Under the pieces are notes generated by a model. That model searched no databases. It was not told where the DNA came from and worked only from the letters and a program-made list of their open reading frames with translations. 64,000 bases of DNA from positions 28,397 to 92,396 of the forward strand of contig JAMCRD010000003.1 in NCBI GenBank assembly GCA_023380475.1, in the 5' to 3' direction. Below are positions 20,781 through 62,496 of this stretch, piece after piece. Source of the DNA: Patescibacteria group bacterium (lineage in GTDB: Bacteria > Patescibacteriota > Minisyncoccia > UBA6257 > Colwellbacteraceae). Position numbers and translations under genes: made by a program. The number at the start of each line of letters is the position of its first letter. The stretch's first letter is position 1.

Positions 20781-22196
<1,416 letters not shown>

Positions 22197-37687: not shown

Positions 37688-39280
37688 TCAGTACATTCCT
37701 TCCTTCTTGCTACGTAGGAAAGTGTCGAGGTTTTCGATGAACAGCACCAACACTTGAAACGGGACATCAAACAAGGCAAATACTATGACCAGAATTTTTA
37801 TCTTGCTTAGACCGTAAATGGCGAACTTTCCAATGGTAACGAACGGCATGAAGATCAGGTCGCCGAGAAACGACCAAACTGAGGCTTTGGCTGGTTCCAC
37901 GCTTATGTCCTTAGCCCGATTGTTAACTCTAACACCGGTCGCAGCCACTATGGAAGTAAACAGGATTAAGACTATCGAGCTGGCTACAGAGAACTTGAGC
38001 AATTGCAGTAACCGCCACGTTTCCCATAGAACAAAAATGGATACTGCGAAGAATAGGATGTTAACCATGGCCCGGCCGAACCGTTTCTTGCTCTCAGGCA
38101 ACATCATTAGATACTTCTTACGATGTTCATTGTAAACGGCCGCTTTTATCTCAGTTTGGACAAGATCAAGATTGTGCTTGGAAGGCATGCGGATGACAGC
38201 CAGCAAGAACGTCATAAGCAGGGGAGGGAAGATGATACTTGCCACCGTGTTAGCCAAAATAAAAGTATGAAGAGCGTTGTCGAGCGGTATCTCAATAGCC
38301 AAAGCGATTATGACTTTTGTAATAAAAAGCGAGACTACGCTGAAAAAAGCTAGATTCTTGAGACGACTCTTCTGCTGTTCAAAACGTCTGTTGTAAGCCG
38401 AAACTATAGCCGGAATTAGTTTATGCTCATCACTGAAAATTTCCTCTACAGCTTCCGGTGCCTTGCCACCGTCAAAGACAATATCCCCCAATAGTAGGAA
38501 AACGGTATTAAATTGATTGCATAGTTTGAAAAAATAAGACGATAGGGGATTTCTAGCATAACCATCTAACTCCCGCTTCACGGTCAAGAGATTGCTTGCC
38601 AACCATTCGAACCGCTCATCGGTTGGATCGTCCCAGTAAGGGTAGAACTGTTTGAGCAAGCGATAAGCCAGCTGATCCTCGTCAACGCGCAGCAAAGCTC
38701 TCTGGATGGCTATAAACAGCTGTATGTCTCTATCCCGATCATCAACCTTTCCACCCGATATGACCATATTCTCCCGCAGAGCCAAAAACATTGCTCCTGC
38801 CATCGCTCGATCCTTAAACGGCGGGTCTAAAAATTCTTCGATAGCCGATGCTGTGACCGAGATCAGCCAAGAGGCCAGATCATCCTGACGGTAGGTTCTA
38901 TTGTCTTTAGACTTATCTATAAAAAGAGTGAGATTGTTTATCAAACCCTGCACATGAGCCACCTTGGTTTCTGGGATTTGATCGTTAGGGAAATATCCTG
39001 AGCGGATCATTTCCTTTATAAGCACTTCGGCGACGTTGTTCCGACGGTGCAACCGTATATCTATCTTAAGAGCCCGTGAAATGCTGTGCTGGCGAATCAG
39101 GTGTTCCTCGTAATAATCAACTATGCTCCGTATTTGCTCGTAGGCCTTAGCAAACTTGGAAGCTACTTCGTCAACGTGAATGCATACCGTGGTTTCCGAA
39201 GACGGCTTGTTTAAATTAGAGTTATCCTTGTAACTCTTTAAGAGGTAACGAATTGCTTCTGATAGCATAATGGTGGTCAA
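37688..39280 (-). CDS. Large membrane protein of unknown function (helical N-terminal domain plus about 6 TM)
   Basis: 530 aa, with a soluble helical part of about 300 aa followed by hydrophobic helices. No motif recognised. Confidence 0.6.
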   Translation of the reverse strand: MTTIMLSEAIRYLLKSYKDNSNLNKPSSETTVCIHVDEVASKFAKAYEQIRSIVDYYEEHLIRQHSISRALKIDIRLHRRNNVAEVLIKEMIRSGYFPNDQIPETKVAHVQGLINNLTLFIDKSKDNRTYRQDDLASWLISVTASAIEEFLDPPFKDRAMAGAMFLALRENMVISGGKVDDRDRDIQLFIAIQRALLRVDEDQLAYRLLKQFYPYWDDPTDERFEWLASNLLTVKRELDGYARNPLSSYFFKLCNQFNTVFLLLGDIVFDGGKAPEAVEEIFSDEHKLIPAIVSAYNRRFEQQKSRLKNLAFFSVVSLFITKVIIALAIEIPLDNALHTFILANTVASIIFPPLLMTFLLAVIRMPSKHNLDLVQTEIKAAVYNEHRKKYLMMLPESKKRFGRAMVNILFFAVSIFVLWETWRLLQLLKFSVASSIVLILFTSIVAATGVRVNNRAKDISVEPAKASVWSFLGDLIFMPFVTIGKFAIYGLSKIKILVIVFALFDVPFQVLVLFIENLDTFLRSKKEGMY

Positions 39281-40335: not shown

Positions 40336-41451
40336 TTATTCATACTGGATGAAACTAGGTTGAGGTGAAAGTTTCAGGATTTCTTCCGGCGTCATTAAGG
40401 CACTGCCAGGCTGCAGTACATCATTCTTGTAGAAAAGCTTGAAACCAGTAAATTGAATAGGCTTAGTTGCTACCACACCATCGTAGGTTTTTATCTTCTG
40501 AGCTTGCGTACCAAAACCATCCATATCCATAACAATCTCTACCTGAGGCAATGGTTTAATCTTATCCCAGTTCGTAACCATCTGATTAGTGAATATGTGA
40601 ATAACCAGTATCTTCGGCGGCAAATTATTTTCTTTAACAATCTGCGCTAGATATTGTGCAGCATAATTAATATCTGCAGCATCCATAGTGCCTATCCTTG
40701 TACCTGGATAACCACCATCACGCATAGAGAATTCTGGATCGAGTGCTAGCTCGACTTGAGATAGCTTCAAATATTTTGCAAGTAACGGTAATTCGGTTTC
40801 GACAGCACTTAAACCAATTTGTACGTCCAAGACAACAAGCCCATTGACACTTTCAGCCAAACTTATAGCTTTATCAATCTGGCTCGACGGCATTCGTAGG
40901 CTATACAACCCATCCGACCCAGGGGTATTCTGCGCAGCGACAGCAATATAGTCTATAGCTGGTATAACTGGCGTTGAGGTATCCACCGCTTGCCACTCAT
41001 CGACCGCATTTTTAAGCATGCTAATCATCTGACCGGGGGGATATTCGCCCAATACTCCCATCTGCTTAGAATAGAAATTACCGTAATAAGCAACGATCCT
41101 GCTAAACGGTAAAATGGCACCTCCCAACGGGTATACCGTTTTGACTGGCCAAGAACTCGGCGTCGAGGTTGCTACAAGCTCTGTAGATGTAGTAGAGGAT
41201 ACAGTAGATGAAGCGATCGCAATCCTAACATAGTGAATTGGGATATTAGCTAACTCTTCCAATTTTGCATTATAGGCAGCTATATCTAAAGGTGGATAGG
41301 TAAATGGAATCGAAGTGGCTTGTTTGGGAACATCTTTGCCGTCGCTTAATACAAACATTGGTTGATAGTAGATAAACGTTGCAGCCACGGCTACAAACAA
41401 CAAAATTCCAAAAACAATAAAGGCTTGCCTTACCCTACTTTTACTCTTCAC
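40336..41451 (-). CDS. Membrane-anchored exported protein, possible glycoside-hydrolase-like TIM-barrel fold
   Basis: 371 aa with an N-terminal TM anchor. The alternating beta/alpha pattern (VVLDVQIG, ELALDPEF, VIHIFT, MDMDGFG) is only suggestive. Confidence 0.4.
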   Translation of the reverse strand: MKSKSRVRQAFIVFGILLFVAVAATFIYYQPMFVLSDGKDVPKQATSIPFTYPPLDIAAYNAKLEELANIPIHYVRIAIASSTVSSTTSTELVATSTPSSWPVKTVYPLGGAILPFSRIVAYYGNFYSKQMGVLGEYPPGQMISMLKNAVDEWQAVDTSTPVIPAIDYIAVAAQNTPGSDGLYSLRMPSSQIDKAISLAESVNGLVVLDVQIGLSAVETELPLLAKYLKLSQVELALDPEFSMRDGGYPGTRIGTMDAADINYAAQYLAQIVKENNLPPKILVIHIFTNQMVTNWDKIKPLPQVEIVMDMDGFGTQAQKIKTYDGVVATKPIQFTGFKLFYKNDVLQPGSALMTPEEILKLSPQPSFIQYE

Positions 41452-43020: not shown

Positions 43021-43737
43021 ATGAGTGACTACGAACTGAAGCTTCCCGAGTTCCAAGGCCCGATAGACAAGCTGCTTGAGCTGATTGAGGCCAAGCAGCT
43101 TGAGATAAACCGAGTCAGCTTAGCTGAAGTTACAGCTGACTTCATCCAGTACCTGGAAACCATCAAGAACGTTTCAGCTTCGACTTTGGCCGATTTTATC
43201 TCTGTAGCTGCAAAACTGATTCTTATAAAGTCACACACCCTTCTGCCATCTTTGCCAGTAACAGCTGAAGAAGAATCGGAGATGGCCGAGTTGGAGCATC
43301 GGCTGGCTATATACCGTGAACTAAGGAACGCTGAAAGAAACATCCATAAGATTTGGGGTAAGAACGTTGCTCTAAACAGAGAGTTTTTGGCCAACGTGCC
43401 TGAAGGGTTTTACCTAAGCCAGCCTCTCCAGCCCAATGAGCTGTTAGCGGTAATGAATAAGCTGAACCAGGAAGTGACGACTTTCCTGCCGCAGGAAGCC
43501 TCCGAAAAAGTCAAAATTGTAAGTCTGGAAGAAACTATCCGTGGATTGGCTGCAACGATAAACAAGGTTATGTCGACCAGCTTCGACAGATTGACCAAAG
43601 GTAAAGATAAAAAAGAGATAGTGGTTCTTTTCCTAGCTTTGCTGCATTTACTCAAAGACAATATAATCCAAGTGGATCAACCAGGAATATTCGAGAGTAT
43701 AAATATAGTTTTCCAAAACAATGCCAAGCAATCTTAA
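43021..43737 (+). CDS. scpA: Segregation and condensation protein A
   Basis: LPEFQGPIDKLLELIEAKQLEINRVSLAEVTADFIQYL is the ScpA N-terminal signature. Confidence 0.88.
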   Translation: MSDYELKLPEFQGPIDKLLELIEAKQLEINRVSLAEVTADFIQYLETIKNVSASTLADFISVAAKLILIKSHTLLPSLPVTAEEESEMAELEHRLAIYRELRNAERNIHKIWGKNVALNREFLANVPEGFYLSQPLQPNELLAVMNKLNQEVTTFLPQEASEKVKIVSLEETIRGLAATINKVMSTSFDRLTKGKDKKEIVVLFLALLHLLKDNIIQVDQPGIFESINIVFQNNAKQS

Positions 43738-44278
43738 AGCAGCTATCGAGGCTCTTCTCTTCGTATACGGCGAGCCGGTCAAAATAAAGAAACTCGCTCA
43801 GATAAACCAGACTGACGAAGAAACCGTAAACAAAGCCTTGGAAGAAATAAAATCGTCTCTCCAAGCCCAAGAGGGAGGACTAAGTCTGATGGTTTATGAC
43901 GGCGAAGCGGTTCTAACCACCAAGCCGGAACTAGCCAGTCTACTGCAAAATGTGATCAAGGAGGAAATGGATTCAGAGCTGACTCCGGCAAGCCTCGAGA
44001 CCCTAACCATCGCATCTTACTTAGGGCCGTGCAGCCGAGCCGAAATAGACTATGTCCGTGGCGTAAACTCTGCCATCATCTTAAGAAGCTTAAGCGTGCG
44101 GGGACTGGTTACCCGTAAGCCGGATCCTGAAAGAAGCAATAGCTACCTCTATCAAGTGACGGGGGATTTCTTACGCCATATCGGTCTAGGCTCACCAGAA
44201 GATTTGCCCGAATACAGCAAGTACCACGAACTTATCAAAAAACTTCGGGAAATAAATGAGGCTCCCGAAAATAAGTAA
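43721..44278 (+). CDS. scpB: Segregation and condensation protein B
   Basis: AAIEALLFVYGEPV and a tandem winged helix (SRAEIDYVRGVNS..LRSLSVRGLV). Overlaps scpA. Confidence 0.88.
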   Translation: MPSNLKAAIEALLFVYGEPVKIKKLAQINQTDEETVNKALEEIKSSLQAQEGGLSLMVYDGEAVLTTKPELASLLQNVIKEEMDSELTPASLETLTIASYLGPCSRAEIDYVRGVNSAIILRSLSVRGLVTRKPDPERSNSYLYQVTGDFLRHIGLGSPEDLPEYSKYHELIKKLREINEAPENK

Positions 44279-45188
44279 GAGCAGACTGTCGCTCGCCATC
44301 ACTGGGCTGGCAGTGCTAGCTATAGCCGCTGGCTTAGTTATCTCAAGAGAACAATATATTTTCAGCTATCCATCAAATCGTCTGACAACGACCTCTTCAG
44401 AACCAACCAGTGCTTACAGCGACACGGCAACGGCGCTAAAGTCCGTTTCTTCGATCTACCAGTATACCTCGAGCACCGATGCAGCCACGGCGGCTGTCTA
44501 TTCGCTCCAAGACGGTACTGAAATCCTAGGATGGAATGATGGCAAGCAGTGGCCTATAGCTTCCCTGACCAAATTGATGACAGCCTTGGTGACCAGCCGC
44601 CTGCTGCCATCCGATCAGCTGGTAACTGTAAGTTCAACCGACGAACAGTACCTCACCGCAGCCCAAGCTGCACCAACTTTCAAGGTAGGGGATACGCTCA
44701 CTGTCCGAGATCTCATTACCTCAATGATGATTGTTTCTTCAGACGATGCTGCCGAAGCTCTGGCAGATTACTACGGTCGCGATAAATTTCTGCAGGTCAT
44801 GAATGATACTGCAAAGAGTCTCAACATGGACGATACGAGATTCGTGAGTCCTTCTGGCCTCTCACCCCAAAACTTATCAACAACCTCCGACTTGTTCCAG
44901 TTGGTAAAATTCATATGGTCCACTGACCCGAACCTCCTCGCTCTAACCCGCCAAAAACAAGCTAGGGTCACGGTATACGAGGGAGGTGCGGCTACTTTCA
45001 GATATCTCACCAATATCGACCAGTTCGCTGGAGCAGCGAACTTCCTTGGCGGTAAAACAGGAACCTTGCCAGTCAGCGCTCAAAACATCATCTCCATTTT
45101 TGAGAGCGGCGGCGCGGCGAAAGTTATAATTGTTCTTGGATCCACCAATCGCTACGCCGAAGCCACTAAACTACTAACTACACTATGA
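44256..45188 (+). CDS. D-alanyl-D-alanine carboxypeptidase (S11 PBP5-like)
   Basis: SxxK (IASLTKLMT), an SxN-like motif (VSSDDAAEAL) and KTG (GGKTGT). N-terminal TM anchor. Confidence 0.8.
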   Translation: MRLPKISKSRLSLAITGLAVLAIAAGLVISREQYIFSYPSNRLTTTSSEPTSAYSDTATALKSVSSIYQYTSSTDAATAAVYSLQDGTEILGWNDGKQWPIASLTKLMTALVTSRLLPSDQLVTVSSTDEQYLTAAQAAPTFKVGDTLTVRDLITSMMIVSSDDAAEALADYYGRDKFLQVMNDTAKSLNMDDTRFVSPSGLSPQNLSTTSDLFQLVKFIWSTDPNLLALTRQKQARVTVYEGGAATFRYLTNIDQFAGAANFLGGKTGTLPVSAQNIISIFESGGAAKVIIVLGSTNRYAEATKLLTTL

Positions 45189-46234
45189 TAACTACTGTCC
45201 TCCAAGCCATAAGAGTTTTCACTTTTGCAATCGTAGCTTTTTTGCTGGCCTTGTCATTGACGCCAACTCTTTTGGACTTTCTCAAGCGGATAAACGCTCG
45301 GAAACAGATACGCTCCAGCGAGGCCGCCCCGATATATTCCCGACTTCACGCCAACAAGGCTGGCACCCCCACTATGGGTGGCGTCATCATCTGGGGCACA
45401 GTCATCGTCTTGGCCTTGGTATTCGCCATACTTAACCTATTGTTCAACGGTTTCTTTAAATATCTTAACTTTATAGACCGTGCTCAGACCTATCTGCCGC
45501 TAGCCGCACTGCTAATCGCAGCCATTCTAGGATTAGCCGATGACATCGTAGGCATATTGAAAATCGGCCCGAAGGGCGGCGGGCTGACGGTGCAATACAA
45601 ATTACTGGTCTACTTTGTCTTGTCGGCCATCGGTGCTTGGTGGTTCTACTACCGTCTCGGCTGGAACACGCTTTACATTCCATTCGTCGGCAATGTTGCT
45701 ATCGGCCTCTGGTACATACCGATATTCATATTTGTCGTCGTCGCCACCGCTTTCTCGGCTAACGAAACCGATGGTCTAGATGGCCTGCTAGGCGGTGTTT
45801 CTTTGTTCGCCTTCGGGGCATTGACCACTGTAGCTTTTGTGCTGGGGCGTTATGACCTCGCAGTGATGGGTGGAACAATGGGTGGAGCACTGTTGGCTTT
45901 CCTTTGGTTCAACATCCACCCTGCCAAATTATTCATGGGTGACACGGGCAGCATGGCTATCGGCATAACCTTGGGCATCATGGCCTTGCTCACCAACACA
46001 GCACTGTTCCTGCCCTTGTTTGCTTTCATAATGGTCATTGAATCACTGTCGGTAATCATTCAGCTGATCAGCAAGAGGCTTTTTAAGCATAAAATATTCC
46101 TCTCTACGCCAATTCATCACCATTTCGAGGCTCTGGGCTGGCCGGAATACCAGGTTACCATGCGTTTCTGGATAATATCAGTCGTGTTTGCCGGGTTGGG
46201 CCTAATCGTTTTCTTCCTGGCTAGGATCCTGTAA
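45185..46234 (+). CDS. mraY: Phospho-N-acetylmuramoyl-pentapeptide transferase
   Basis: 10-TM protein with KAGTPTMGG, NETDGLDGL, MGDTGS and PIHHHFE motifs. Confidence 0.93.
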   Translation: MITTVLQAIRVFTFAIVAFLLALSLTPTLLDFLKRINARKQIRSSEAAPIYSRLHANKAGTPTMGGVIIWGTVIVLALVFAILNLLFNGFFKYLNFIDRAQTYLPLAALLIAAILGLADDIVGILKIGPKGGGLTVQYKLLVYFVLSAIGAWWFYYRLGWNTLYIPFVGNVAIGLWYIPIFIFVVVATAFSANETDGLDGLLGGVSLFAFGALTTVAFVLGRYDLAVMGGTMGGALLAFLWFNIHPAKLFMGDTGSMAIGITLGIMALLTNTALFLPLFAFIMVIESLSVIIQLISKRLFKHKIFLSTPIHHHFEALGWPEYQVTMRFWIISVVFAGLGLIVFFLARIL

Positions 46235-46292
46235 GGATTCCGGAAACAATAAACGTCTCTCGGGCTAATAGAGAGGTGCTATAATTCAGAGA

Positions 46293-47777
46293 ATGAGCCT
46301 GCTTATAAAAGGCGTCCAAGTGGTGGACGGTGAAGGGAAGCCACCATATTTGGCTGATGTTCTCGTCCAAAAGAATGTGATTGGCGCCATTGGCAACTTT
46401 AAAAACAAACAGACCGATGAAGTCATAGACGGCCTAGGCAACTATCTCATGCCTGGTTTCATAGATGTCGACACCGATTCCGACCACTACCTGGATATAT
46501 TCACTCATCCATCCCAGACCGATTTTACATCTCAAGGAGTAACTACCATTATTGGCGGCCACTGCGGTTCATCGCTGGCACCGCTGCTCTACGGCACGCT
46601 CGAGGGATTGGACAAATGGGCTGACCCATCGACTATCAACGTGAATTGGCACACCATGGCTGAATTCCTATCATCTTTGGACAAACTCAAGCTAGGGGTT
46701 AATTTTGGATCCCTGGTCGGATACTCAACCGTACGTCGAGCTTTAACCGGAGATAACGAACGCGCCCTGACTCACAGCGAGTTGGCCATCTTTAAAGAAG
46801 TTGTCAGTCGGGCTTTACGGGAAGGAGCCTTCGGTCTGTCGACCGGCCTAGGTTACGTCCACGGCCGCACGGCCAAACCGGAGGAGATAAAAGAGCTGGT
46901 CAGCATCCTTAAAAACTTTGACGCTGTGTATGCCACCCATCTGAGAAATCAAACCGATCGTCTTCTGGCCTCAGTTAGAGAAACAATTGACGTTGCTTCA
47001 GCCACCGGCGTCCAGACTCTGATAAGCCACCTCCGCCCCCTGAAAGGGTATGAAGATCAATATATCAAGGCTCTCGAATTGATCGAGCACAGTGCCGCCC
47101 AAGCCAGCATTTTCTTCGATGTCTATCCCCACGACACGAGCATCTACTCGCTGTACTCGCTCCTACCACGCGAAGCCCAGAAGAGGAGCGCCGAAGCAAC
47201 GTTGGAGCACATAGCCAAACCCAAGAACCTCAAGACGATAGAAAAAAATCTGGCCGAACTTGATCCGGATAATATGCAGATTGCCAGCGCCCCTAAATAT
47301 GATCATTTAGTAGGCAAAACTATCCGCAACGTCGCCGAAGACAAAGGCATCACCCCTGCCAAAGCTCTACTGGAACTGATGAGGCTTACCTCACTAAAAG
47401 CCACTGTCTTCTATAAAGACGTTAACCTGGACTTACTAACTCAAGCCATGGTCAGCGACCGTTGTTTCATAGCCTCCAACGGCCACTCGCCGCTCCCTGG
47501 AAAATTTATGAAGCACGAGCGTTCGACCAATACCTTCCCTAAATTCCTGGAGATGGCAAGCAAGCTCAACCTGATGCCGATAGAAAAAGCTGTAAAAAAG
47601 ATAACCTCCTTGCCGGCCAAATATTTCGATCTCAACGACAGGGGAGCGATCAAAGAAGGCAAAATCGCCGACCTGGCCCTGGTCGGCAAGGATGATCTCA
47701 AAGTGAAAGAAGTCGTCGTTGGCGGGGAACGCCGAGGTGCAATCCTTCGCCACCAAAATCACAAAGGCAAGAAGTGA
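46293..47777 (+). CDS. Amidohydrolase-fold protein of the N-acyl-D-amino-acid deacylase family, with divergent metal-site residues
   Basis: Family-like layout (GGHCGSS, ATHLRN, ISHLRP). The usual GFID.H.H is GFIDVDTDSD, and the late catalytic Asp region reads IASNGH. Confidence 0.7.
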   Translation: MSLLIKGVQVVDGEGKPPYLADVLVQKNVIGAIGNFKNKQTDEVIDGLGNYLMPGFIDVDTDSDHYLDIFTHPSQTDFTSQGVTTIIGGHCGSSLAPLLYGTLEGLDKWADPSTINVNWHTMAEFLSSLDKLKLGVNFGSLVGYSTVRRALTGDNERALTHSELAIFKEVVSRALREGAFGLSTGLGYVHGRTAKPEEIKELVSILKNFDAVYATHLRNQTDRLLASVRETIDVASATGVQTLISHLRPLKGYEDQYIKALELIEHSAAQASIFFDVYPHDTSIYSLYSLLPREAQKRSAEATLEHIAKPKNLKTIEKNLAELDPDNMQIASAPKYDHLVGKTIRNVAEDKGITPAKALLELMRLTSLKATVFYKDVNLDLLTQAMVSDRCFIASNGHSPLPGKFMKHERSTNTFPKFLEMASKLNLMPIEKAVKKITSLPAKYFDLNDRGAIKEGKIADLALVGKDDLKVKEVVVGGERRGAILRHQNHKGKK

Positions 47778-48877
47778 TGCGCCAGAGAGGTCATGCCGAC
47801 TACATAATCCTCGTAACGTTTATCATTCTGGTAGCTTTCGGCTTCATGATGCTGGCCTCAGCCTCATCAGACTTAGGGAAGACCAACTTCAACAACCCTT
47901 ATTACTATATTGAACACCAGATAATGTACGGTTTTAGTTTAGGCGTCGTCGGCTTCTTAATCGGATTGCTGGTGCCGTATAAGTTCTACAAGAGATACGC
48001 TCTACTTTTCTTGATAGCCACAATAGCACTACTGGTGATAGTCTTCGTGCCTCATATCGGTGTATCCAGCGGCGGAGCTCAACGCTGGATAAATGTTGGC
48101 CCGTTAACCGTACAACCTGGAGAAGTTACTAAACTGCTTTTTATAATGTATCTGGCTGCGTGGCTGTCGTCGGCGCGCAAAGACAGACGCACTCGAACAG
48201 TAACCGAAGGGCTTATACCTTTTTGGGTCACAACCGGCTTGGTAGCCGTGTTGCTCCTTTTGGAGCATTCCACCAGTTCAGTTTTTATCGTCCTTGCCGG
48301 GGCTTTAACTGTTTACTTCGCAGCCGGTGCCAAGAAATTTTTCTTGTTAGCCACCTTCGTCCTGGGAGGGCTGTTGGTCGGCGCTTTTATCCTTATCACC
48401 CCTTACAGACTGGCTCGCATTGATGCCTACCTCAATCCTTCGGCCCAGAACGTATACGGCTCAGGCTACCAGATTAACCAATCGCTTCTGACCATTGGTT
48501 CCGGCAGTTTGTTTGGGGTAGGTTACGGCAATTCCGTTTCTAAAAGGTATCTACCAGCTAGGCTGGATGACGCCATTTTTGCCATCATCGCCGAGGAGTT
48601 CGGCTTTATAGGTTCTGTGGCCGTGGTTGCTCTTTTCTTTACCTTAGTCGGTCGGGGATTGATCCTAGCCAAGAAAATGTCTGATCCCATGGGTAAGTCA
48701 ATACTGGTCGGCTTCTCAACGATAATCGGCGTCCAGGTTTTCCTGCATATAGGTTCGGTATCCCAGCTGATCCCGCTGACCGGTGTGCCACTGCCTTTCA
48801 TAAGTTACGGTGGTACGGCTTTAGCTGTATTTATGACCATGGTGGGCATAATGTTAAACATAAGCAAGTATGTCTAA
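47774..48877 (+). CDS. ftsW: SEDS-family peptidoglycan polymerase FtsW
   Basis: FtsW/RodA/SpoVE motifs (QPGEVTKL, SGYQINQSL, LPLTGVPLPFISYGGT). Lies between mraY and murG. Confidence 0.88.
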   Translation: MMRQRGHADYIILVTFIILVAFGFMMLASASSDLGKTNFNNPYYYIEHQIMYGFSLGVVGFLIGLLVPYKFYKRYALLFLIATIALLVIVFVPHIGVSSGGAQRWINVGPLTVQPGEVTKLLFIMYLAAWLSSARKDRRTRTVTEGLIPFWVTTGLVAVLLLLEHSTSSVFIVLAGALTVYFAAGAKKFFLLATFVLGGLLVGAFILITPYRLARIDAYLNPSAQNVYGSGYQINQSLLTIGSGSLFGVGYGNSVSKRYLPARLDDAIFAIIAEEFGFIGSVAVVALFFTLVGRGLILAKKMSDPMGKSILVGFSTIIGVQVFLHIGSVSQLIPLTGVPLPFISYGGTALAVFMTMVGIMLNISKYV

Positions 48878-50024
48878 GTTGAGAGTATTGATGACTGGCG
48901 GCGGGACAGGCGGGCATATTTATCCGCTGGTCTCGGTTGCGGCTGAGCTTCAAGTATTGGCCGCCGAGAAGAAAATCAGCTTGGATATCCATTACCTCGG
49001 TGCCTTCGGACCGTTCCAAGAACTGCTCGAGCTAAACGGCTTGAAAGTAGGCCGCATCGCCGATAGCAGACTGAGACGTTATTTTTCGATGCGCAATTTC
49101 ATAGACGTTCCGAAATTTGGCTACAGCTTATTGCAAGCTGCCTTCAAGATGTTTTGGTTCATGCCAGATGTAGTTTTCTCGAAAGGCGGACCCGGAGCGC
49201 TGGCAGTTGTCTTGATTGCTCGCTTCTACCGGATACCGGTAATAATCCATGAGTCCGATTCTGTGCCAGGACTTACTAACCTTATCTCCGGTAAGTATGC
49301 CAATGTAATCGCGACTTCTTTCGAGTCCGCTTCGGTCTATTTCCCAAGCGATAAAATAGTGCTGACCGGCAACCCCATCCGCCGCTATATGCTGGAAGAT
49401 TTTAAAAAGGAATCGGTTAGCCGTAACAAGGGATTCCTCGGCTTCGATCCTTCTTTGCCTCTCATAACCGTGATGGGTGGTTCGCAAGGAGCTGCGGCTC
49501 TAAACGACTTCGTCATCGGACATCTGCGGGAGATATTGAATATAACGCAGGTTTTGCACCAAACAGGAACGGCCAACTACGACGATGTTGTGTCTAAACT
49601 TGAATCAGCCTCGGCGGGAATCGATAACGATCTGCTCAAACGCTACCGTCCCGTCGCTTATCTCAAAAATGATCTACGAGCTGCCTTTATCGCTTCTGAT
49701 TTGGTAGTCAGCCGCGCCAGCGGCGGCGGCATATTTGAACTGGCCGCTTTTGGAAAACCATCTATCCTCATACCACTGCCGTCGGACGTGGCCGCCGGAG
49801 ACCACCAGACCAAGAACGCTGCCGATTACTGCCAGACCGGTGCGGCTGTGATGGTGAAGCAGGACGAAATGCCCAGCCGTCTACTCAAAGAGGTTCAAAG
49901 ACTGCTAGCATCGCCGGCGGAATTAAATCAAATGAGTCAGGCAGCCACACGTTTTTCTAAGCCTGAGGCCGCTTTAAATATAGCCGAAACCGTCCTAAAA
50001 TTAGGAGGTTATGGTGAGAGTTAG
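48870..50024 (+). CDS. murG: UDP-GlcNAc:lipid I N-acetylglucosaminyltransferase MurG
   Basis: N-terminus TGGGTGGHIYP, IHESDSVPG and C-terminal SRASGGGIFELAA. Confidence 0.9.
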   Translation: MSKLRVLMTGGGTGGHIYPLVSVAAELQVLAAEKKISLDIHYLGAFGPFQELLELNGLKVGRIADSRLRRYFSMRNFIDVPKFGYSLLQAAFKMFWFMPDVVFSKGGPGALAVVLIARFYRIPVIIHESDSVPGLTNLISGKYANVIATSFESASVYFPSDKIVLTGNPIRRYMLEDFKKESVSRNKGFLGFDPSLPLITVMGGSQGAAALNDFVIGHLREILNITQVLHQTGTANYDDVVSKLESASAGIDNDLLKRYRPVAYLKNDLRAAFIASDLVVSRASGGGIFELAAFGKPSILIPLPSDVAAGDHQTKNAADYCQTGAAVMVKQDEMPSRLLKEVQRLLASPAELNQMSQAATRFSKPEAALNIAETVLKLGGYGES

Positions 50025-51402
50025 ATTCGCGCCTTCTCCGACAGGTTCATTGCATATCGGAGGAGCGCGCACAGCGCTATTTAACTGGCTGCACGCGAAA
50101 TCGCAGGGCGGTCATTTTATCCTTCGGATTGAAGACACGGACCGCGAGCGGTCCACCCCTGAGTCCGAGGCGGACATTTTGGAGGGGCTGTCTTGGCTAG
50201 GGATAACCTGGGACGAGTTCTACCGCCAGAGCGATCGGATTGGGATCTATCGCGAGTATCTTAAAAAACTTATTGATGACGACAAAGCGTATTACTGCTT
50301 CTGTTCCAAGGAAGACCTGGAGGCTGAACGGCAGGCGTTGGTAGCTCAAGGTTTTCCTCCCAAATATTCCGGCCGATGTCGCGCCCTCTCAAAAGAAGAG
50401 GTAGTCAAACGACTTAACGAAAATAAAGAACACGTCATCCGTTTCAAAGTACCCGAAAGGGAAGTGGTGTTTAAGGACTTAATAAGAGGCCAAGTGAAGT
50501 TCGACGCCTCGCTGTCGGGCGACGTCATAATCGCCAAAAATCTGGACCAGCCACTGTACAACTTTGCGGTAACTGTCGACGACTTTCTGATGGGTATAAC
50601 ACATGTGATCAGGGGAGAGGAGCACCTCTCGAACACGCCTAAACAGATACTGCTGGCTGAGGCTATGGGCATGAACGCACCGCAATTCGCACATCTTCCT
50701 CTCATCTTAAATACTGACCGCAGCAAGATGTCCAAGCGTATGTCTGACGTCGCCTTGCATGACTATCGTAACAAAGGCTATCTACCGCAAGCGATAGTCA
50801 ATTTTATATCCTTCCTAGGATGGCATCCCAGGGAGGACAAAGATATGATGAGTCTCGACCAGATCACATCCGAATTTGAGCTTAACCGCGTTCAGAAAGG
50901 CGGAGCTATATTCAATGTAGATAAATTGGATTGGCTGAACGCTCACTATATCAACAGCCTGACTCCTGAAGAGCTAGCCGGGATGGCTAAGCCCTTCATG
51001 CCTGAAGGGTACGAACTGACAATCGCGATGGCGGCCAGTGTAAAAGGGAGAATAAAAACCTTGGCTGAGATACAAGGCATAGTTGATTTGTTCTTCAAGC
51101 TGCCGGCGTATGATACTGAATTATTAAAATGGAAAGACATGCCGCTTTCACAGGTGACCTCTAACCTGGAGTCAGCTTTAACCGTGCTAAATAAAATAGG
51201 CGAGAGTGACTACAACCAAGCTAATCTCGAGAAGGTTTTATCACCGCTGGCACCGGAAGGGAATAGGGGAGAACTCTTCTGGCCGCTAAGAGTTGCTCTC
51301 TCGGGCAGTAAAGCTTCTCCCGGTCCATTCGAGATAATGGAAGTCTTGGGTAAACAGGAAAGCCTCTCCAGAATAGAGAAAGCCATCACTAAAGCTAGAT
51401 AA
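50011..51402 (+). CDS. gltX: Glutamyl-tRNA synthetase
   Basis: [22 protein letters not shown] (HIGH) and KMSKR (KMSKS) motifs. Confidence 0.93.
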   Translation: [463 protein letters not shown]

Positions 51403-51404: not shown

Positions 51405-52682
51405 ATGGTTCGTAAAATCATCCATAGCAGAGAAATGGCCAAGTTCCTGACCGCGACGGTTCTGCTGGTTAATCTCGCTACGCCTTTTACAGCGGCAGCT
51501 CAAACCGTGACGACTCAACCCACAGCTGCCTCCACCGCATCCCTGCAATCCGAGATCGACGCCAACAATCAGGCAATAGCTAACCTAAATGCACAGATAG
51601 CCCAGTATCAAGCTGAGATCCAGCAGGCTGGAGAAAACAAGAAGACTCTTCAGGCAGCCATCAATTCCCTCAACCTGCAACGCAAAAAGATACAAACACA
51701 AATATACGTCACTAAAGCCCAGATTAGTACCACCAACATCCAGATCCAGCAACTCGGCGACAGTATAGCCAGCACTACACAGATAATCGCCTCCGAGCAG
51801 GAAGCACTAGCCGCAGATATGCGTCTCTTAGAACAAGCTGATAATCAGGAACCACTAGCGATAATATTGTCTTCCGGCACTCTAGACCAAGCCTGGACCA
51901 ACGCTAACGCGGCTCTTCAAATTCAGGAAGCGATTCAAGAAAAGATGACTGCACTTAGGGCTCAAGAAGATAGCCTTACGACTTCCCAAACTGCTTCCCA
52001 AGTTAAACAGGCGACGCTTTCTTCACAGCAACAAACCCTGACCAAACAACAGCAGACCCTGACTGATACAGAAAAATCTAAGACTCGGCTGTTGTCCGAA
52101 ACGAACGCGCAAGAGTCCGTGTATGAACAACTCCTTGCCTCAGCCGAAGAGCAACTCAACAGCATTTCAACATTTTCAAAAAACGCTGGGGGATCAGGAA
52201 TCCTAGGAGATCAAACCCGATGCGATGCTTGGGGGTGCTATTATAACCAGCGCGATGCCGCCTGGGGCAGCGATCCGCTGGACGGCACGAGCTATACTCT
52301 CGCCAGCGATGGTTGCCTAGTAACTTCGGTGGCCATGGTCCTGACTCACTACGGCTATCACAATGTCACACCCGTGACTATAAATACCAACCCCAACAAC
52401 TTTGCGCCATACTTCCCAGCTTATTTGCTGACCACCATAAACGTTGATGGGACTACAGTCACCAGAGTCAGAGCGGCGATTGATGCCACACTGGCCACCG
52501 GTAACCCGGTGATAGTTGGCTTGCATGCCTACGGCGGCACCCACTTTGTAGTTTTGGTGAGCGGCAGCAAGGGTAATTACATCATGCGCGACCCATACAT
52601 AGAAAACGGCGACAATATTCTATTTGCAGATCACTATTCCCTAAGGAGCGTCTTTGCGGTAACCAAGGTACAAATAAGCTGA
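51405..52682 (+). CDS. Secreted coiled-coil protein with C-terminal papain-like (C39-like) cysteine peptidase domain, PcsB-like architecture
   Basis: Signal peptide ending FTAAAQ and a Q-rich coiled coil of about 230 aa. The C-terminal domain has candidate Cys (DGCLVTSVAMVL) and His (GGTHFVVLV). Confidence 0.6.
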   Translation: MVRKIIHSREMAKFLTATVLLVNLATPFTAAAQTVTTQPTAASTASLQSEIDANNQAIANLNAQIAQYQAEIQQAGENKKTLQAAINSLNLQRKKIQTQIYVTKAQISTTNIQIQQLGDSIASTTQIIASEQEALAADMRLLEQADNQEPLAIILSSGTLDQAWTNANAALQIQEAIQEKMTALRAQEDSLTTSQTASQVKQATLSSQQQTLTKQQQTLTDTEKSKTRLLSETNAQESVYEQLLASAEEQLNSISTFSKNAGGSGILGDQTRCDAWGCYYNQRDAAWGSDPLDGTSYTLASDGCLVTSVAMVLTHYGYHNVTPVTINTNPNNFAPYFPAYLLTTINVDGTTVTRVRAAIDATLATGNPVIVGLHAYGGTHFVVLVSGSKGNYIMRDPYIENGDNILFADHYSLRSVFAVTKVQIS

Positions 52683-55019: not shown

Positions 55020-56012
55020 ATGAAAACATACACATACGAACCAACAAAACATCCTAGGCTCTTTCGCGTGGTAGACCGCGAGGGGAATTGGGAAAGGTAT
55101 TTCCTGACCGACCTTGTACCTGAAAAGGGCCGAGAAATATCGACCATGGGCGGAGTTTATCTTCGTGGCGTTACTACCATCCTTGATAAGGGATACGCCA
55201 AAGGAGAAGGTCTGTTACGCTTTCTGTCGCAGCATACCGAATCGGAAAGAGATGAGATCCTAAAGTCGGCTGGCGAGAGAGGTGACAAAGTTCACCGCGC
55301 TATTGCCATGCTCAGCGAAGGCTTAGGAACTCTCAACAAAACCGATGGGGTCTATAACCGTGAGATCAAAGAATACGAACCCTTGAGCAATGAGGAATGG
55401 GATTGTCTATTGGCTTTTGAGAGTTTTTGGAGAAGGCACGAACCGATAGTGTTGCAATCAGAAGCACCACTCTATTCGTTGGAAGGAGGGTACGCTGGGA
55501 CAGCCGATAAGATTTGGATCTTAACGAAAGCCTGTGATGTCAAGATGTGCCCTTGCAAGGACTGGATAAACCTCATCGGTCTGAACGATTACAAGACCAG
55601 TTCTGGTATTTACCCGAGCTACTGGGCTCAAGTCGGAGCCTACGCTAAAGCTGAGAACATCAAAGAGTATCTCCCAACGGGCAGAGTGATTGACTACACC
55701 TCGATCCTGCGGCTTGGCACAAACCACAAAACAACGGGAGGTTATGAGTTTCGGGTCAGCAACAGGCTCGGGGCTCAATATGAGTTGTTTGGGGCAGCCA
55801 AGACGATAGCCAACTATGAGAGCAATGAGTTCGATCCCTCCAAAGAGGTTCAAGAAATTCCTGATTCAATCACCATTGAATTGAAAAAGATGCCGGAGTC
55901 CGTCGAAACTCCCAAAGTCGAAAAGAAAAATGGAAAAGGTAAAAGAAATCAACCAAAAGCTGGGCGTAGTGCCAAAGCTAAGGCTGGGCACGCAGCAACC
56001 AGCCAAAAGTAA
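55020..56012 (+). CDS. Phage PD-(D/E)XK (RecB/Cas4-like) exonuclease
   Basis: Motifs GYAGTADKIW, LNDYKTSSG and QVGAYAKA (a QxxxY-type motif). Lys-rich tail. Confidence 0.65.
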   Translation: MKTYTYEPTKHPRLFRVVDREGNWERYFLTDLVPEKGREISTMGGVYLRGVTTILDKGYAKGEGLLRFLSQHTESERDEILKSAGERGDKVHRAIAMLSEGLGTLNKTDGVYNREIKEYEPLSNEEWDCLLAFESFWRRHEPIVLQSEAPLYSLEGGYAGTADKIWILTKACDVKMCPCKDWINLIGLNDYKTSSGIYPSYWAQVGAYAKAENIKEYLPTGRVIDYTSILRLGTNHKTTGGYEFRVSNRLGAQYELFGAAKTIANYESNEFDPSKEVQEIPDSITIELKKMPESVETPKVEKKNGKGKRNQPKAGRSAKAKAGHAATSQK

Positions 56013-57279: not shown

Positions 57280-57756
57280 ATGAACAAAAACGACATAAAC
57301 AACAACTGGGTAGAAATAGGATACAAGCAAATCCCCCAAAAGGTTTTCGACAAATACGGAGTCAAGCCGTTCGAGATAATGAAACGGAAGATGCGCAAAA
57401 AAGAGGGTCAAGTCTGGAACCTCATCTCTTACAATGACGCCAAAGAAGAAGCCGAGCGACGGGGCTGCCGTCTTCCCTCCGTTCAGGAGATGCTGGTACT
57501 GCTCGAATGGTACAAGCACGAGAAGGGGAACAAGGCGAATATCAGAGACAATCAATTTCTGGGCATAGAGGAGCTTTCATATAAGGAGTTTGTCTATCTG
57601 GAATGGGTGGAAGGACTAATTCCGTACCTTCGCGGTGGCGATTGGGGTAATGGCTCGGGTGGTGGGCCGTTCACGTTGAACCTGGATTGGGGCGCGGGCA
57701 CTACGAGCACCTATGTGGGTTTCCGCTGTGCCCGCAGCCGTAGAAATCCGAAATAA
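57280..57756 (+). CDS. C-type-lectin-fold (DUF1566 / FGE-sulfatase-like) domain protein
   Basis: SYNDAKEEAERRGCRLPSVQEMLVLL, and a C-terminal RGGDWGNGSGGG...YVGFRCAR resembling CLec-fold ligand-binding ends. Confidence 0.5.
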   Translation: MNKNDINNNWVEIGYKQIPQKVFDKYGVKPFEIMKRKMRKKEGQVWNLISYNDAKEEAERRGCRLPSVQEMLVLLEWYKHEKGNKANIRDNQFLGIEELSYKEFVYLEWVEGLIPYLRGGDWGNGSGGGPFTLNLDWGAGTTSTYVGFRCARSRRNPK

Positions 57757-57763
57757 AACGAAG

Positions 57764-58153
57764 ATGGAGCTTAAATTGACCCAACACGACATAATCAGGA
57801 ACTACCTCGACGGGAAGGGATGGGTGTACGAGTACAAAATCCGAGGGCTGGACACCGAGTGGGGCTTCATCGGGGCCAGAGGGGACAGGGACGTAAGGCA
57901 GATGATAAGGAACGGGGAACTGGAAGCCTCCTTTAACGGCAAATACCGAATAGTCAGATTGAAAAGGTCGCCGAGTCCAAGAGAACTAGCGGATGAACTC
58001 AACCAAGAAATTGAGGAGAAAGGCGGACAGGTTGTGGCAGATAAAATGCCAAGCCCTATCAAAGAGGTGTCTGGTATGCGGACGGCCGACGCAGGTATGC
58101 CATCACTTTTTCCCGAAGAGCATAGCGGCATCTCTTCGCTACGACATTTCTAA
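57764..58153 (+). CDS. Phage hypothetical protein
   Basis: MELKLTQHDIIRNYLDGKGWVYEYKIRG... The last 161 nt overlap the next gene in another frame. Confidence 0.4.
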   Translation: MELKLTQHDIIRNYLDGKGWVYEYKIRGLDTEWGFIGARGDRDVRQMIRNGELEASFNGKYRIVRLKRSPSPRELADELNQEIEEKGGQVVADKMPSPIKEVSGMRTADAGMPSLFPEEHSGISSLRHF

Positions 58154-58370
58154 CGGCGTTCCGTTATGCAACGTTTGCCATTTCAAGCTGCACAACGGAG
58201 ACCCCACCGTGGGGGCGAAGATACTGGAATTGAGGGGAGCAAAATGGCTGGAGGGATTGGAAGAGCGGCGCAAGGGGAAGGTCAGACCGACGGTGGGATA
58301 TTTCGAGAAAGTCATCGCCGACCTGTCTAACGAGACTGACGAGAAACAAAGAAAGGACAAAGAAAAATGA
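57993..58370 (+). CDS. NinG-like / HNH-type zinc-binding protein
   Basis: KKLRRKADRLWQIKC..CLVCGRPTQVCHHFFPKS...NGVPLCNVCHFKLH. Confidence 0.5.
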   Translation: MNSTKKLRRKADRLWQIKCQALSKRCLVCGRPTQVCHHFFPKSIAASLRYDISNGVPLCNVCHFKLHNGDPTVGAKILELRGAKWLEGLEERRKGKVRPTVGYFEKVIADLSNETDEKQRKDKEK

Positions 58371-58522
58371 AACAAAAAATGAAGAGGCTCACGGTGTGGG
58401 TAACGACGGAGAATCTGAAGCAGCTCGCCAAACTCGCCAGGGAGTCCAACAAGTCTCGGGTAATCAGGGGTTTAATCGTAAAGGCCGCAGGTGGGGGTTC
58501 CCAGTCGGAAAAGGTACGGTAA
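58367..58522 (+). CDS. Ribbon-helix-helix (CopG-like) protein, 51 aa (not in ORF track)
   Basis: MKQKMKRLTVWVTTENLKQLAKLARESNKSRVIRGLIVKA shows a beta-strand, helix, helix pattern. ATGA overlap with the upstream stop. Confidence 0.5.
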   Translation: MKQKMKRLTVWVTTENLKQLAKLARESNKSRVIRGLIVKAAGGGSQSEKVR

Positions 58523-58562
58523 AGACAAAAACAAAAGAGATGGACGATAATAAATTAGAAAA

Positions 58563-59009
58563 ATGAGGCAAATTAAATCAGCATTGGGAGAAGTATTGAA
58601 ACTCCTCAACAAGTCCTATAAAGATCAGGAAATCCGTGTTTGCGACAACTGTGGAGTCCCATTGATATGGACTTTTTGTTGGGCGTATCGCGAGAGATAC
58701 TGTCTCAACTGTGGGATAAGTGGCGCAATGCTGGGGACTGGCGAAGATGTGGAATTAACCAGCGAATTGAAGTATGAGGCAAGGGTGATAGATGACATCT
58801 GGAAAGCAATCTACAAAAATCTAGTGCCGCGTTCATCTTACAAACGGAATGGATGTAAGAAGTGTGAGGGAGAAGATCATAACAAACACCTCTCAAGGTC
58901 CGAAATTTTTAGAGATAAAACAGCGACGGAAATTCTCAAAAAATTAGCGGAGGGCTTCACCGTTAAAAGAGAAATTTTAGAAAGAGGATTATATCAGGGA
59001 CAAGTTTAG
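58563..59009 (+). CDS. Phage zinc-finger protein
   Basis: 148 aa with CDNCG...CLNCG and CKKCEGEDH. Confidence 0.45.
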   Translation: MRQIKSALGEVLKLLNKSYKDQEIRVCDNCGVPLIWTFCWAYRERYCLNCGISGAMLGTGEDVELTSELKYEARVIDDIWKAIYKNLVPRSSYKRNGCKKCEGEDHNKHLSRSEIFRDKTATEILKKLAEGFTVKREILERGLYQGQV

Positions 59010-59042
59010 GAACTGTCCGGAAAACATAATTAAGCCGAAAGG

Positions 59043-59249
59043 ATGGTAAAAACCGTTTACGGCATGAAATCTAAAATGACCGACCAAGAGTTCAAGGAAA
59101 AATGTGAGAAACATAGGGAAAAGCTTAAGGTGCTATTGAACTCCGGCTTCTTTGAGCTCAAAAATACCAAGGTCGAGGTGAACTTCGGGCCAAAGGGAGA
59201 GATAGGGGATTGGTCTATTGTCCGGCAGAGTGTGTACAAACGACCATGA
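59043..59249 (+). CDS. Phage hypothetical protein
   Basis: 68 aa ORF. Its 3' end carries a TGTACA-17-TATAAT promoter-like site (59232-59260). Confidence 0.4.
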   Translation: MVKTVYGMKSKMTDQEFKEKCEKHREKLKVLLNSGFFELKNTKVEVNFGPKGEIGDWSIVRQSVYKRP

Positions 59250-59340
59250 ATATGCTATAATACTCAAAACTGAATAAGTAAAAGTCCCAAGCGATAATAA
59301 GCCGGACATCTCGCAATGAGGTGGCCGGTATTTCATTTTT

Positions 59341-59778
59341 ATGGGAGCACCAAAGGGAAATCAATACGCAAAAGGAAATAAGGGAGGGCGCCCTCCGAAA
59401 GTAGAGCCGCAAAATCTTCCCGCGTTCGGTGAAGAACTGGTGTCATGGGCAACTCGGAAATACCAGACGCTTCTTTCGGCGCCCGACAAGGAGGCAAAAA
59501 TGCCCTTCTTCATCAAGACGTTCTGTCGGGAGTATAAAATATCGGAAGACACGCTCCAAGCGTACAGGGAGGCAAATAAAGAGTTTTCCGCCTCGTATAA
59601 GCAGGCAAGACAGATTATTGCTGAAGCACTCATGGTTGGAGCACTCAAGGGATGGTGGCATCCGACCGCTTTTATCTTCATCGCCAAGAATGAAACCGAA
59701 ATGAGAGATAACTCGTCGGTTGATCTCACATCGGGCGGAGAAAAGATTACGGTCAACCTGGTCGAATTCAAAAGATGA
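59341..59778 (+). CDS. Terminase small subunit
   Basis: N-terminus MGAPKGNQYAKGNKGGRPPK is typical of TerS HTH-type proteins. Lies upstream of TerL. Confidence 0.65.
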   Translation: MGAPKGNQYAKGNKGGRPPKVEPQNLPAFGEELVSWATRKYQTLLSAPDKEAKMPFFIKTFCREYKISEDTLQAYREANKEFSASYKQARQIIAEALMVGALKGWWHPTAFIFIAKNETEMRDNSSVDLTSGGEKITVNLVEFKR

Positions 59779-62241: not shown

Positions 62242-62432
62242 ACGAAGAACTACGTTGCAAATTATGCGGTAAATTGTTGGGCAAGGGATTGCAGTTAGGG
62301 GGCATTGTAGCCATCAAGTGCCATCGGTGCGGTACCATCACGGAGTTCGGGAATAAAATCGTCCACTATATCGTTCGTACCGAAGCGGGCGAGGAGTTAG
62401 GGCTCTTGACACTGAAAAATAAAAAGATATAA
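62238..62432 (+). CDS. Com-like zinc-finger protein
   Basis: LRCKLCGKLLGKG...IKCHRCGT resembles the Mu Com pattern RC..C.KLL...I.C.RC. Confidence 0.5.
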   Translation: MNEELRCKLCGKLLGKGLQLGGIVAIKCHRCGTITEFGNKIVHYIVRTEAGEELGLLTLKNKKI

Positions 62433-62468
62433 TGACAATATAAAATAATAAGTTTTGAGTGCCTTTGA

Positions 62469-62491
62469 GCGCCAGAAGTGGCGCTTTTTTT
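62469..62491 (+). terminator. Hairpin plus T-run between the Com-like gene and portal
   Basis: GCGCCA-gaag-TGGCGC followed by TTTTTTT. Confidence 0.7.
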
Positions 62492-62496
62492 GTTGT

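Follow-up and report, generated by a model that had tools for sequence, protein, structure and literature searches.

A D-aminoacylase-derived protein encoded directly upstream of ftsW in Patescibacteria: a candidate pseudoenzyme of peptidoglycan synthesis

The open reading frame (ORF) at positions 46293-47777 of a 64,000-nucleotide stretch of DNA from a Patescibacteria group bacterium (contig JAMCRD010000003.1, assembly GCA_023380475.1; the whole stretch is denoted the window) encodes a homolog of D-aminoacylases, denoted X, in which several active-site residues are substituted and whose gene lies within the dcw (division and cell wall) cluster, immediately ahead of ftsW. The synteny with ftsW is conserved in related loci, and across the family the active site decays under purifying selection. 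X appears to be a pseudoenzyme, or a derivative that binds a ligand, and to serve the FtsW/MurG pathway in a structural or regulatory capacity, a reading to which we assign a probability of roughly 0.55; the protein would have lost hydrolysis, may bind a ligand and could be coupled, physically or functionally, to FtsW. For the X family as a whole, the most fitting description is that of a pseudoenzyme derived from D-aminoacylase, or of an enzyme in transition, with a probable structural or regulatory function on the cytoplasmic side of peptidoglycan synthesis.

Among proteins of solved structure, the closest relative of X is the D-aminoacylase of Alcaligenes faecalis (1M7J; E=7.3e-45 with phmmer), followed by OngB (E=1e-42), the Klebsiella D-acylase and the N-acyl-D-glutamate deacylase 3GIP (E=9e-37). 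The Pfam families Amidohydro_3 (38.6 bits, threshold 29.7) and Amidohydro_1 (35.8 bits, threshold 25) match above their gathering thresholds and cover only the C-terminal part of the protein; the score against NCBIfam NF006560 (PRK09061), 74.8 bits, is far below the curated cutoff of 340. The AlphaFold2 (AF2) model of X, built from 38 homologs (predicted local distance difference test, pLDDT, 88.3; predicted template modeling score, pTM, 0.89), consists of a (beta/alpha)8 barrel, a beta-sandwich and an inserted alpha/beta domain and, in a Foldseek search, matches 9G5M, 1M7J, 9KB1 and 3GIP with template modeling (TM) scores of 0.80-0.82. The model contains neither a signal peptide nor a transmembrane segment, so that X is presumably cytoplasmic. 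A protein identical to X is named 'amidohydrolase family protein [Patescibacteria group bacterium]' at NCBI, and the database names of its relatives are generic as well ('amidohydrolase family protein', 'N-acyl-D-amino-acid deacylase').

In a 2025 review of D-acylases, the bridging Cys is said to define the metal center, the n-site is described as the metal with a Tyr and the general-base Asp, the latter called fully conserved in characterized D-acylases, and the c-site as the Tyr of the YPY hinge with a backbone amide and an Arg (PMC12149444). Residue equivalences for X were taken from its phmmer alignment to 1M7J, and the codon coordinates were verified (Table 1). By this alignment, the beta metal site and the substrate pocket are retained in X, and neither the general base nor the His pair of the alpha site is present; the third residue of the YPY hinge is His280. 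The preliminary description of the locus, which was made from the sequence alone, had recognized a D-aminoacylase layout with the Cys/His/His site kept, with DTD at the N-terminal HxH and IASNGH in the region of the catalytic Asp. Both the alignment and the fold match bear out this layout, and the motifs are all present in X: PGFIDVDTDSDHY at residues 54-66, GGHCGSS at 88-94, ATHLRN at 214-219, ISHLRP at 244-249 and IASNGH at 393-398. The same description allowed that canonical ligands might be intact and merely shifted by a few residues. A register shift as the cause of the missing ligands can be ruled out since the flanking motifs (FID..D.Y, G.CG.SLAPL, ATH.R, ISH and I.S.G) match exactly between X and 1M7J; the alignment shows true substitution. 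In the 188 sequences of the clade, position 60 is N, D or H, position 62 is D, S, N or T, and position 396 is N, H or S, with Asp in only 2 of the 188, while an equivalent of Arg410 is present in 160. In one sub-group, His60 co-occurs with His396 (pattern D-H-N ... H), which hints at a differently built second site. The deacylase activity of X on N-acyl-D-amino acids is predicted to be lost or strongly reduced.

Decay of the active site extends across the family. In an exhaustive search with HMMER, 1.84 billion cluster representatives yielded 10,895 matches (E up to 0.001), and the 136 full-length sequences among the best 150 matches were taken as an unbiased sample. The metal triad is accompanied by the Asp in 24 of the 136, and in these Tyr188, Tyr278 and Arg410 are kept in about 90%. 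The triad without the Asp is found in 49 sequences, with the same three residues kept in 78%, 57% and 53%, respectively; in 58, the triad is lost and the Asp is absent as well, and retention of the pocket residues falls to about 27%; five sequences combine a lost triad with an Asp (pocket residues kept in 3/5, 2/5 and 2/5). Within this series, X of the window is, to judge from its residues, at an intermediate stage, with the base gone and the metal site and the pocket kept. In 35 of the 63 representatives that have lost the triad, all three ligands are gone; the Cys is replaced by T, D, A, G, S or E, His216 by Y, G, Q, N, D or A, and His246 by W, N, Y or G. The GGxxGxSLAPL, xLR and ISxxxP motifs align perfectly, which indicates that the ligand losses are real. 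A rough count on a neighbor-joining tree gives about 30 changes of triad state. The four degenerate members with a readable genomic context (P0122, P0126, P0166 and P0142) are all encoded directly upstream of ftsW. Because positional orthologs without metal ligands keep this ftsW-linked place, the function that holds the gene there cannot be metal-dependent hydrolysis. The idea of a non-catalytic binder, one of two put forward in the preliminary description, is strengthened by these observations, since the triad is gone from 63 of the 136 representatives, yet the gene keeps its position and is strongly constrained.

The ratio of nonsynonymous to synonymous substitution rates (dN/dS) is 0.057 for the loci L013 and L015, the sole unsaturated pair; the synonymous divergence (dS) of the window's X is saturated against all available relatives. 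Over 65 genome pairs, X, FtsW and MurG have median identities of 0.493, 0.501 and 0.458, respectively, to the ortholog in the window. Thus, the loss of catalytic residues in X goes together with purifying selection and a conserved context, the combination expected of a pseudoenzyme. The repeated loss of active-site residues might alternatively suggest a functionless relic on its way to elimination. This explanation is hardly tenable and is already contradicted by the data: full-length, intact ORFs persist in organisms whose genomes are small and streamlined (415 genomes at species level), the dN/dS value is low, X is conserved to the same extent as FtsW and better than MurG, and the position of the gene, its start-codon context and its promoter element are all conserved.

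A word-indexed database search returned 2294 relatives of X with E<1e-10; the best 120 of these share 47-100% identity with X and, wherever the source is named, all come from Patescibacteria, the only group in which the family has been seen so far. A scan of one genome per species, with a pattern that required the Cys and from which the 188-sequence clade set derives, detected relatives in 415 species, including Colwell-, Harrison-, Lipton-, Brenner- and Wolfebacteria, Paceibacterota and Minisyncoccia. Without exception, the 84 loci of the window's clade have ftsW directly after X, mostly with gaps of -4 to +30 nt and many 4-nt overlaps; murG is the next gene, gltX and a peptidase of the M23/C39 type usually come after it, and murE, murC or both are often encoded farther along. 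Glutamate-handling genes recur around X, namely gltX in the window and in most of the related loci, and a glutamate dehydrogenase gene after an X-murD pair in L104. The upstream side is far less stable: mraY precedes X in only about half of the loci, those of closer relatives, and in 26 loci another gene is found there (ComEC with a gene of the metallo-beta-lactamase (MBL) fold, RseP, a VirD4-like gene, enolase, 2-hydroxyacid dehydrogenase and others), which rules out mraY as a conserved partner. Given that the upstream gene varies and ftsW is constant, the invariant partner of X is ftsW rather than mraY. The placement in dcw clusters of the candidate phyla radiation (CPR), for which uniqueness to this contig had been considered, is therefore conserved.

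In the window, X and ftsW share bases at their junction: the TGA stop of the former and the GTG start of the latter overlap by 4 nt (GTGA), an arrangement suggestive of translational coupling. The start of X is itself preceded by an extended -10 promoter-like element, TGCTATAAT (Table 1). The sequence TGNTATAAT occurs six times in the window compared with 2.4 expected, a mild enrichment only; the other five matches are at 19215, 22332, 28404 and 59253 on the plus strand and at 58988 on the minus strand. Conservation is more telling. TANAAT starting at -18 to -12 is present in 47 of 78 distinct upstream regions of X orthologs, compared with 21 matches over the rest of the interval from -100 to -6 (about 80 positions), and this clustering points to a conserved -10 element and a leaderless or short-leader X-ftsW-murG(-gltX) transcript. 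The claim that X has its own -10 box is thereby upheld and extended, the box recurring at an equal distance in these 47 regions; by this conservation, TGCTATAAT would be the promoter of a leaderless or very short-leader transcript. Together, the adjacency in all 84 loci, the frequent 4-nt overlaps and the shared promoter position make up genomic evidence that X may have an FtsW-associated role in the divisome or elongasome.

The preliminary description placed X in the 'murD slot' of the cluster. As an indication of replacement, this notion does not hold because homologs of X coexist with, and adjoin, genuine murD, and often murL, in related Patescibacteria. The nearest catalytically intact homologs (about 35% identity, residue pattern xH-C-Y-H-H-Y-D-R) are found in loci of the order dac-mraY-murL-murD-X-ftsW-murG-gltX-M23 (L090, L091, L093 and L094). 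The murD of a related locus is genuine (TIGR01087, 324 bits, above the cutoff), and murL of L090 matches PF26299/PF26298 and NF041275 (E=5e-79). Further orders include mraY-X-murD-ftsW-murG-gltX, mraY-X-murL-murD-murC and mraY-X-ftsW, and X-murD pairs are also seen away from other dcw genes, several with 4-nt overlaps. In two loci, a MurL-MurD fusion is encoded directly downstream of the X homolog (L101, 11580-14045, 821 aa; L116, 11728-14256, 842 aa), with MurL at about residues 10-413 and MurD at about 426-820; the X of L101 is fully canonical, with HxH and Asp intact. X itself is not MurL, which is a different protein: there is no match to NF041275, PF26298 or PF26299. These adjacencies indicate that X goes along with the Glu-adding step and is no substitute for it.

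Searches of the 64-kb window and of about 1.26 Mb of sequence flanking X in the 84 clade loci (+/-10 kb) detected no MurD, MurL or glutamate racemase; with E. coli MurC/D/E/F and CPR MurD and MurL as phmmer probes against six-frame ORFs, MurC and MurE were the only Mur ligases found. Likewise, Pfam and NCBIfam scans of the window ORFs identified murA, but no Mur ligase and no Asp/Glu racemase. The arrangement in the window is most simply explained as an ancestral (murL-)murD/X/ftsW neighborhood from which murD was lost or moved. It is very improbable that X functionally replaces MurD, the D-Glu-adding ligase. X does hold the position of murD in the E. coli order mraY-murD-ftsW-murG, MurD was not found in the regions searched although MurC and MurE are present there, and the product of MurD is, chemically, an N-acyl-D-glutamate with the type of bond that the enzyme family of X would recognize. 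However, X has an amidohydrolase fold without a Mur-ligase domain, an ATP- or nucleotide-binding domain or a TIGR01087 match in Pfam and NCBIfam, it lacks even the base of a hydrolase, its homologs adjoin bona fide murD in related lineages, and, with the search extending to 10 kb on either side of X, murD may simply lie elsewhere.

Database searches with CPR MurD and MurL returned relatives of L090 only; of 8000 scored candidates in each search, 5647 are MurL-like and 7979 are MurD-like. The route in which MurD2 adds L-Glu and MurL epimerizes the product is common in Patescibacteria of the Parcubacteria/Nealsonbacteria type (L090, 5019-7728; L093; L094; L115). The published distribution of MurD2/MurL comprises some Proteobacteria and, rarely, Actinobacteria (PMC8788868).

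A scenario for the origin of X can be outlined. In the ancestral state, intact members would have been encoded next to ftsW and to murD, the latter often accompanied by murL, which specifies the L-to-D epimerase. Neither murD nor murL adjoins X any longer in the window's lineage, and the general-base Asp (now Asn396) and both alpha-site His (now Asp60 and Asp62) have been lost, with the Cys/His/His site and the carboxylate/acyl pocket (Tyr188, Tyr278-Pro279 and Arg410) kept. X would then no longer be a deacylase; it is likely to be a pseudoenzyme of the cytoplasm, possibly still able to bind a metal and a ligand that resembles an N-acyl-D-amino acid. The candidate ligand is the L-Ala-D-Glu amide of peptidoglycan precursors: the MurD product and later precursors contain this bond and the intact relatives are encoded beside murD and murL, so that the stem peptide of the precursors would be the most plausible choice. 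The selected function of X would be structural or regulatory, within the lipid II/FtsW machinery of the shape, elongation, division and sporulation (SEDS) type, and X, as the leading gene of an X-ftsW-murG-gltX unit, would have its transcription driven by its own -10 element and its translation coupled to that of ftsW.

Several points weigh against the interpretation of X as a pseudoenzyme. The Cys/His/His site, Tyr188, Arg218, Tyr278-Pro279 and Arg410 are kept in X and its closer relatives, a pattern that would also fit residual or altered catalysis, and the retention of the pocket in the sub-clade of X implies that it is still under selection there. The new carboxylates at positions 60 and 62 are located where the alpha-site His contact the hydrolytic water, so that either could in principle provide a replacement base. 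The invariance of the Cys in the 188-sequence set is partly an ascertainment artifact because the pattern used for the genome scan required this residue. Gene adjacency is no proof of a physical interaction between X and FtsW. Finally, dN/dS comes from a single unsaturated pair, the context was read for four degenerate members only, and the neighbor-joining/parsimony count of losses is rough.

The main rival is, indeed, residual or altered catalysis involving Asp60 or Asp62. X would then still be an active metallohydrolase in which the beta-site metal activates water and Asp60 or Asp62 (His60/His396 in some relatives) replaces the strand-8 Asp, and it would free D-Glu or another D-amino acid from N-acyl-D-amino acids or from L-Xaa-D-Xaa fragments (for instance, host-derived L-Ala-D-Glu) for the cell wall of an organism with few biosynthetic pathways. 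Compatible with such an activity are the metal triad and the pocket residues listed above, which are retained in X and in most of its close relatives, the frequency of acidic or His residues at positions 60, 62 and 396, with His60 co-occurring with His396, the adjacency of intact homologs to murD, the glutamate theme nearby (gltX throughout, glutamate dehydrogenase in L104), and the lack of a detected glutamate racemase in the window. Nevertheless, we consider an active hydrolase rather improbable: the strand-8 Asp is described as fully conserved in the characterized D-acylases (PMC12149444), and positions 60 and 62 are variable, several members having no candidate base at 60, 62 or 396 (N-N-N, N-T-N). 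Furthermore, positional orthologs devoid of any metal ligand keep the ftsW-linked place. One of the fold matches of X, 1RJQ, is the engineered D366A mutant of D-aminoacylase, which was reportedly found to be essentially inactive in the original study.

A shift to a new chemistry or a new ligand is a distinctly unlikely alternative. Under this scenario, the His/His/Asp alpha site would have been remodeled, with Asp/Asp/Asn as hard ligands, to bind Mg2+ or Mn2+ together with the pyrophosphate of UDP-MurNAc-peptide or lipid I/II, and X would act on, or sense, nucleotide- or lipid-linked precursors. The substitutions at positions 60, 62 and 396 are polar, often acidic and not random (D/N/H/S/T), and X is encoded among mraY, ftsW and murG, the substrates of all of which carry a pyrophosphate. 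The proposal is purely inferential, however; a DxD...N set at these positions is not maintained across the clade, and the site decays completely in many orthologs.

Returning to a pseudoenzyme associated with FtsW, a more specific version can be put forward tentatively. In Patescibacteria of the Paceibacteria type, X could be an obligatory cytoplasmic partner of FtsW (ancestrally, of MurD/MurL), a former N-acyl-D-Glu deacylase that has become a non-catalytic adaptor or regulator which reads the L-Ala-D-Glu of lipid- or UDP-linked precursors, couples precursor supply to glycan polymerization and fills in for divisome or regulatory components that are lacking in reduced genomes. As a companion to this possibility, in the intact relatives the deacylase might form, together with MurD2 and MurL, an undescribed three-enzyme D-Glu module.

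The coordinates of X, its active-site codons and the surrounding genes are given in Table 1. The Pfam and NCBIfam assignments agree with the gene order dac, mraY, X, ftsW, murG that had been read from the sequence. In the window, gltX overlaps murG by 14 nt; in relatives, a DUF4015 gene is located between dnaX and scpA.

Table 1. Positions of X, its predicted functional residues and neighboring features in the window
Feature	Position	Strand	Remarks
scpA	43021-43737		Pfam/NCBIfam
scpB	43721-44278		Pfam/NCBIfam
S11 D-Ala-D-Ala carboxypeptidase (dac)	44256-45188		Pfam/NCBIfam
mraY	45185..46234	+	TIGR00445, 207 bits, above cutoff; upstream neighbor of X
Extended -10 promoter-like element TGCTATAAT	46277..46285	+	Ends 7 nt before the ATG of X
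X	46293..47777	+	494 aa, ATG start; D-aminoacylase-fold protein, amidohydrolase superfamily (ORF list, Pfam, 1M7J match, AF2 model, Foldseek)
Asp60-Thr61-Asp62 codons	46470..46478	+	Replace the alpha-site (strand-1) His-x-His, His67/His69 of A. faecalis
Cys91	46563..46565	+	Equivalent of metal-bridging Cys96; retained
Tyr188	46854..46856	+	Equivalent of n-site Tyr (Tyr192 in A. faecalis, Tyr188 in K. pneumoniae); retained; role per PMC12149444
His216	46938..46940	+	Equivalent of beta-site ligand His220; retained
His246	47028..47030	+	Equivalent of beta-site ligand His250; retained
Tyr278-Pro279	47124..47129	+	Equivalent of YPY hinge/c-site Tyr (Tyr283 in A. faecalis, Tyr279 in K. pneumoniae); retained; role per PMC12149444
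Asn396	47478..47480	+	Replaces strand-8 general-base Asp366; IGSDG vs IASNG
Arg410	47520..47522	+	Equivalent of c-site Arg binding the substrate alpha-carboxylate (Arg377 in A. faecalis, Arg373 in K. pneumoniae); HPR vs HER; retained
ftsW (FtsW/RodA-family SEDS gene)	47774..48877	+	PF01098, 280.7 bits; TIGR02614, 313.6 bits; GTG start
murG	48870..50024	+	Overlaps ftsW by 8 nt; next gene in the conserved block
gltX (glutamyl-tRNA synthetase)	50011..51402	+	Member of the conserved X-ftsW-murG-gltX block
C39-like peptidase	51405-52682		After gltX

Elsewhere, the window encodes ribosomal proteins, secY, murA, two mreB, mreC, a class B penicillin-binding protein (PBP), pgk, tpi and one tRNA; this gene content resembles that of a small-genome Patescibacterium. 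The two mreB paralogs, mreC and the class B PBP form a cluster (9062-10069, 13662-14708, 14711-15385 and 15784-17640) interleaved with holB, ribosome recycling factor (RRF), an M50 protease and a class II aminoacyl-tRNA synthetase; the sole SEDS gene seen in the window is the ftsW that follows X. The region 57700-63000 resembles a prophage or mobile element: besides small ORFs of Cys-rich and HNH-like type, it holds two glycosyltransferase-like ORFs (59775-60964) and the gene of a large terminase subunit (Terminase_6N/6C; 60925-62241); the AT skew is markedly higher at 56-60 kb. Large ORFs of 330-1015 aa without a Pfam or NCBIfam match are located at 20754-22196, 24874-27921, 37688-39280, 40336-41451 and 55020-56012.

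Few bacterial gene clusters are as conserved and as well studied as dcw, and inside it X is a widespread, strongly constrained and uncharacterized gene, present in at least 415 species-level genomes and in thousands of database proteins, and apparently coupled translationally to ftsW in a major branch of the CPR. A literature search yielded no description of the X family, of MurL/MurD2 in Patescibacteria or of an FtsW-linked amidohydrolase pseudoenzyme. The positional orthologs preserve all stages from an intact enzyme to full loss of the metal site, which makes the family a suitable system in which to follow the path of an enzyme to a structural or regulatory function. Beyond Xanthomonas and the few other groups from which it is known, the MurD2/MurL route is common in CPR of the Parcubacteria type, where it sometimes takes the form of a MurL-MurD fusion and is tied genomically to a D-aminoacylase homolog. 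If X is a partner of FtsW or of the Mur enzymes, it would represent a new component of peptidoglycan synthesis in organisms that cannot yet be grown alone.

Among the known systems, the MurD2/MurL pathway of Xanthomonas oryzae (PMC8788868) resembles the loci with intact X homologs in the clustering of the genes for the Glu step with an accessory enzyme; X differs in that it is not a homolog of MurL and, in the window's lineage, has neither murL nor murD nearby. The D-aminoacylases (A. faecalis DA1, 1M7J; K. pneumoniae, 9G5M; subtype V of the amidohydrolase superfamily, AHS) are the best match of X in sequence and structure and share with it the three-part architecture and the length, the bridging Cys, the two beta-site His, the n-site Tyr, the YP hinge with the c-site Tyr, and the c-site Arg. 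Unlike these enzymes, X has Asn in place of Asp366 and Asp/Asp in place of His67/His69, is encoded in a dcw cluster in coupling with ftsW, and belongs to a family whose members lose the whole metal site. The N-acyl-D-glutamate deacylase Bb3285 of Bordetella bronchiseptica (3GIP/3GIQ) has the same fold (TM 0.82), and a substrate of this kind agrees with the murD/murL surroundings of the intact X homologs; X lacks its catalytic Asp. The position that corresponds, by residue count rather than by alignment, to Arg295 of the Bordetella and Leu298 of the Alcaligenes enzyme is variable in the family and is Arg293 in X; the inserted domain is too divergent for a reliable match of D-Glu specificity. 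The carbohydrate de-N-acetylase OngB (9KB1/9KB3), again with the same fold (TM 0.82, E=1e-42), shows that the family can be recruited to amino-sugar-acid substrates; it has a full catalytic set and functions in chitin catabolism, and neither applies to X. Pseudoenzymes with the amidohydrolase fold include the CRMP/DPYSL proteins and the inactive, dihydroorotase (DHOase)-like subunits that scaffold aspartate transcarbamoylase (ATCase); CRMPs and the Aquifex DHOase-ATCase complex are among the lower fold matches of the X model. These proteins belong to other sub-families (dihydropyrimidinase and dihydroorotase) and to unrelated pathways, and we know of no link between them and peptidoglycan synthesis. 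They nevertheless resemble the path proposed here for X, in that the barrel has lost the metal and the catalytic residues and has been kept as a binding or scaffolding partner.

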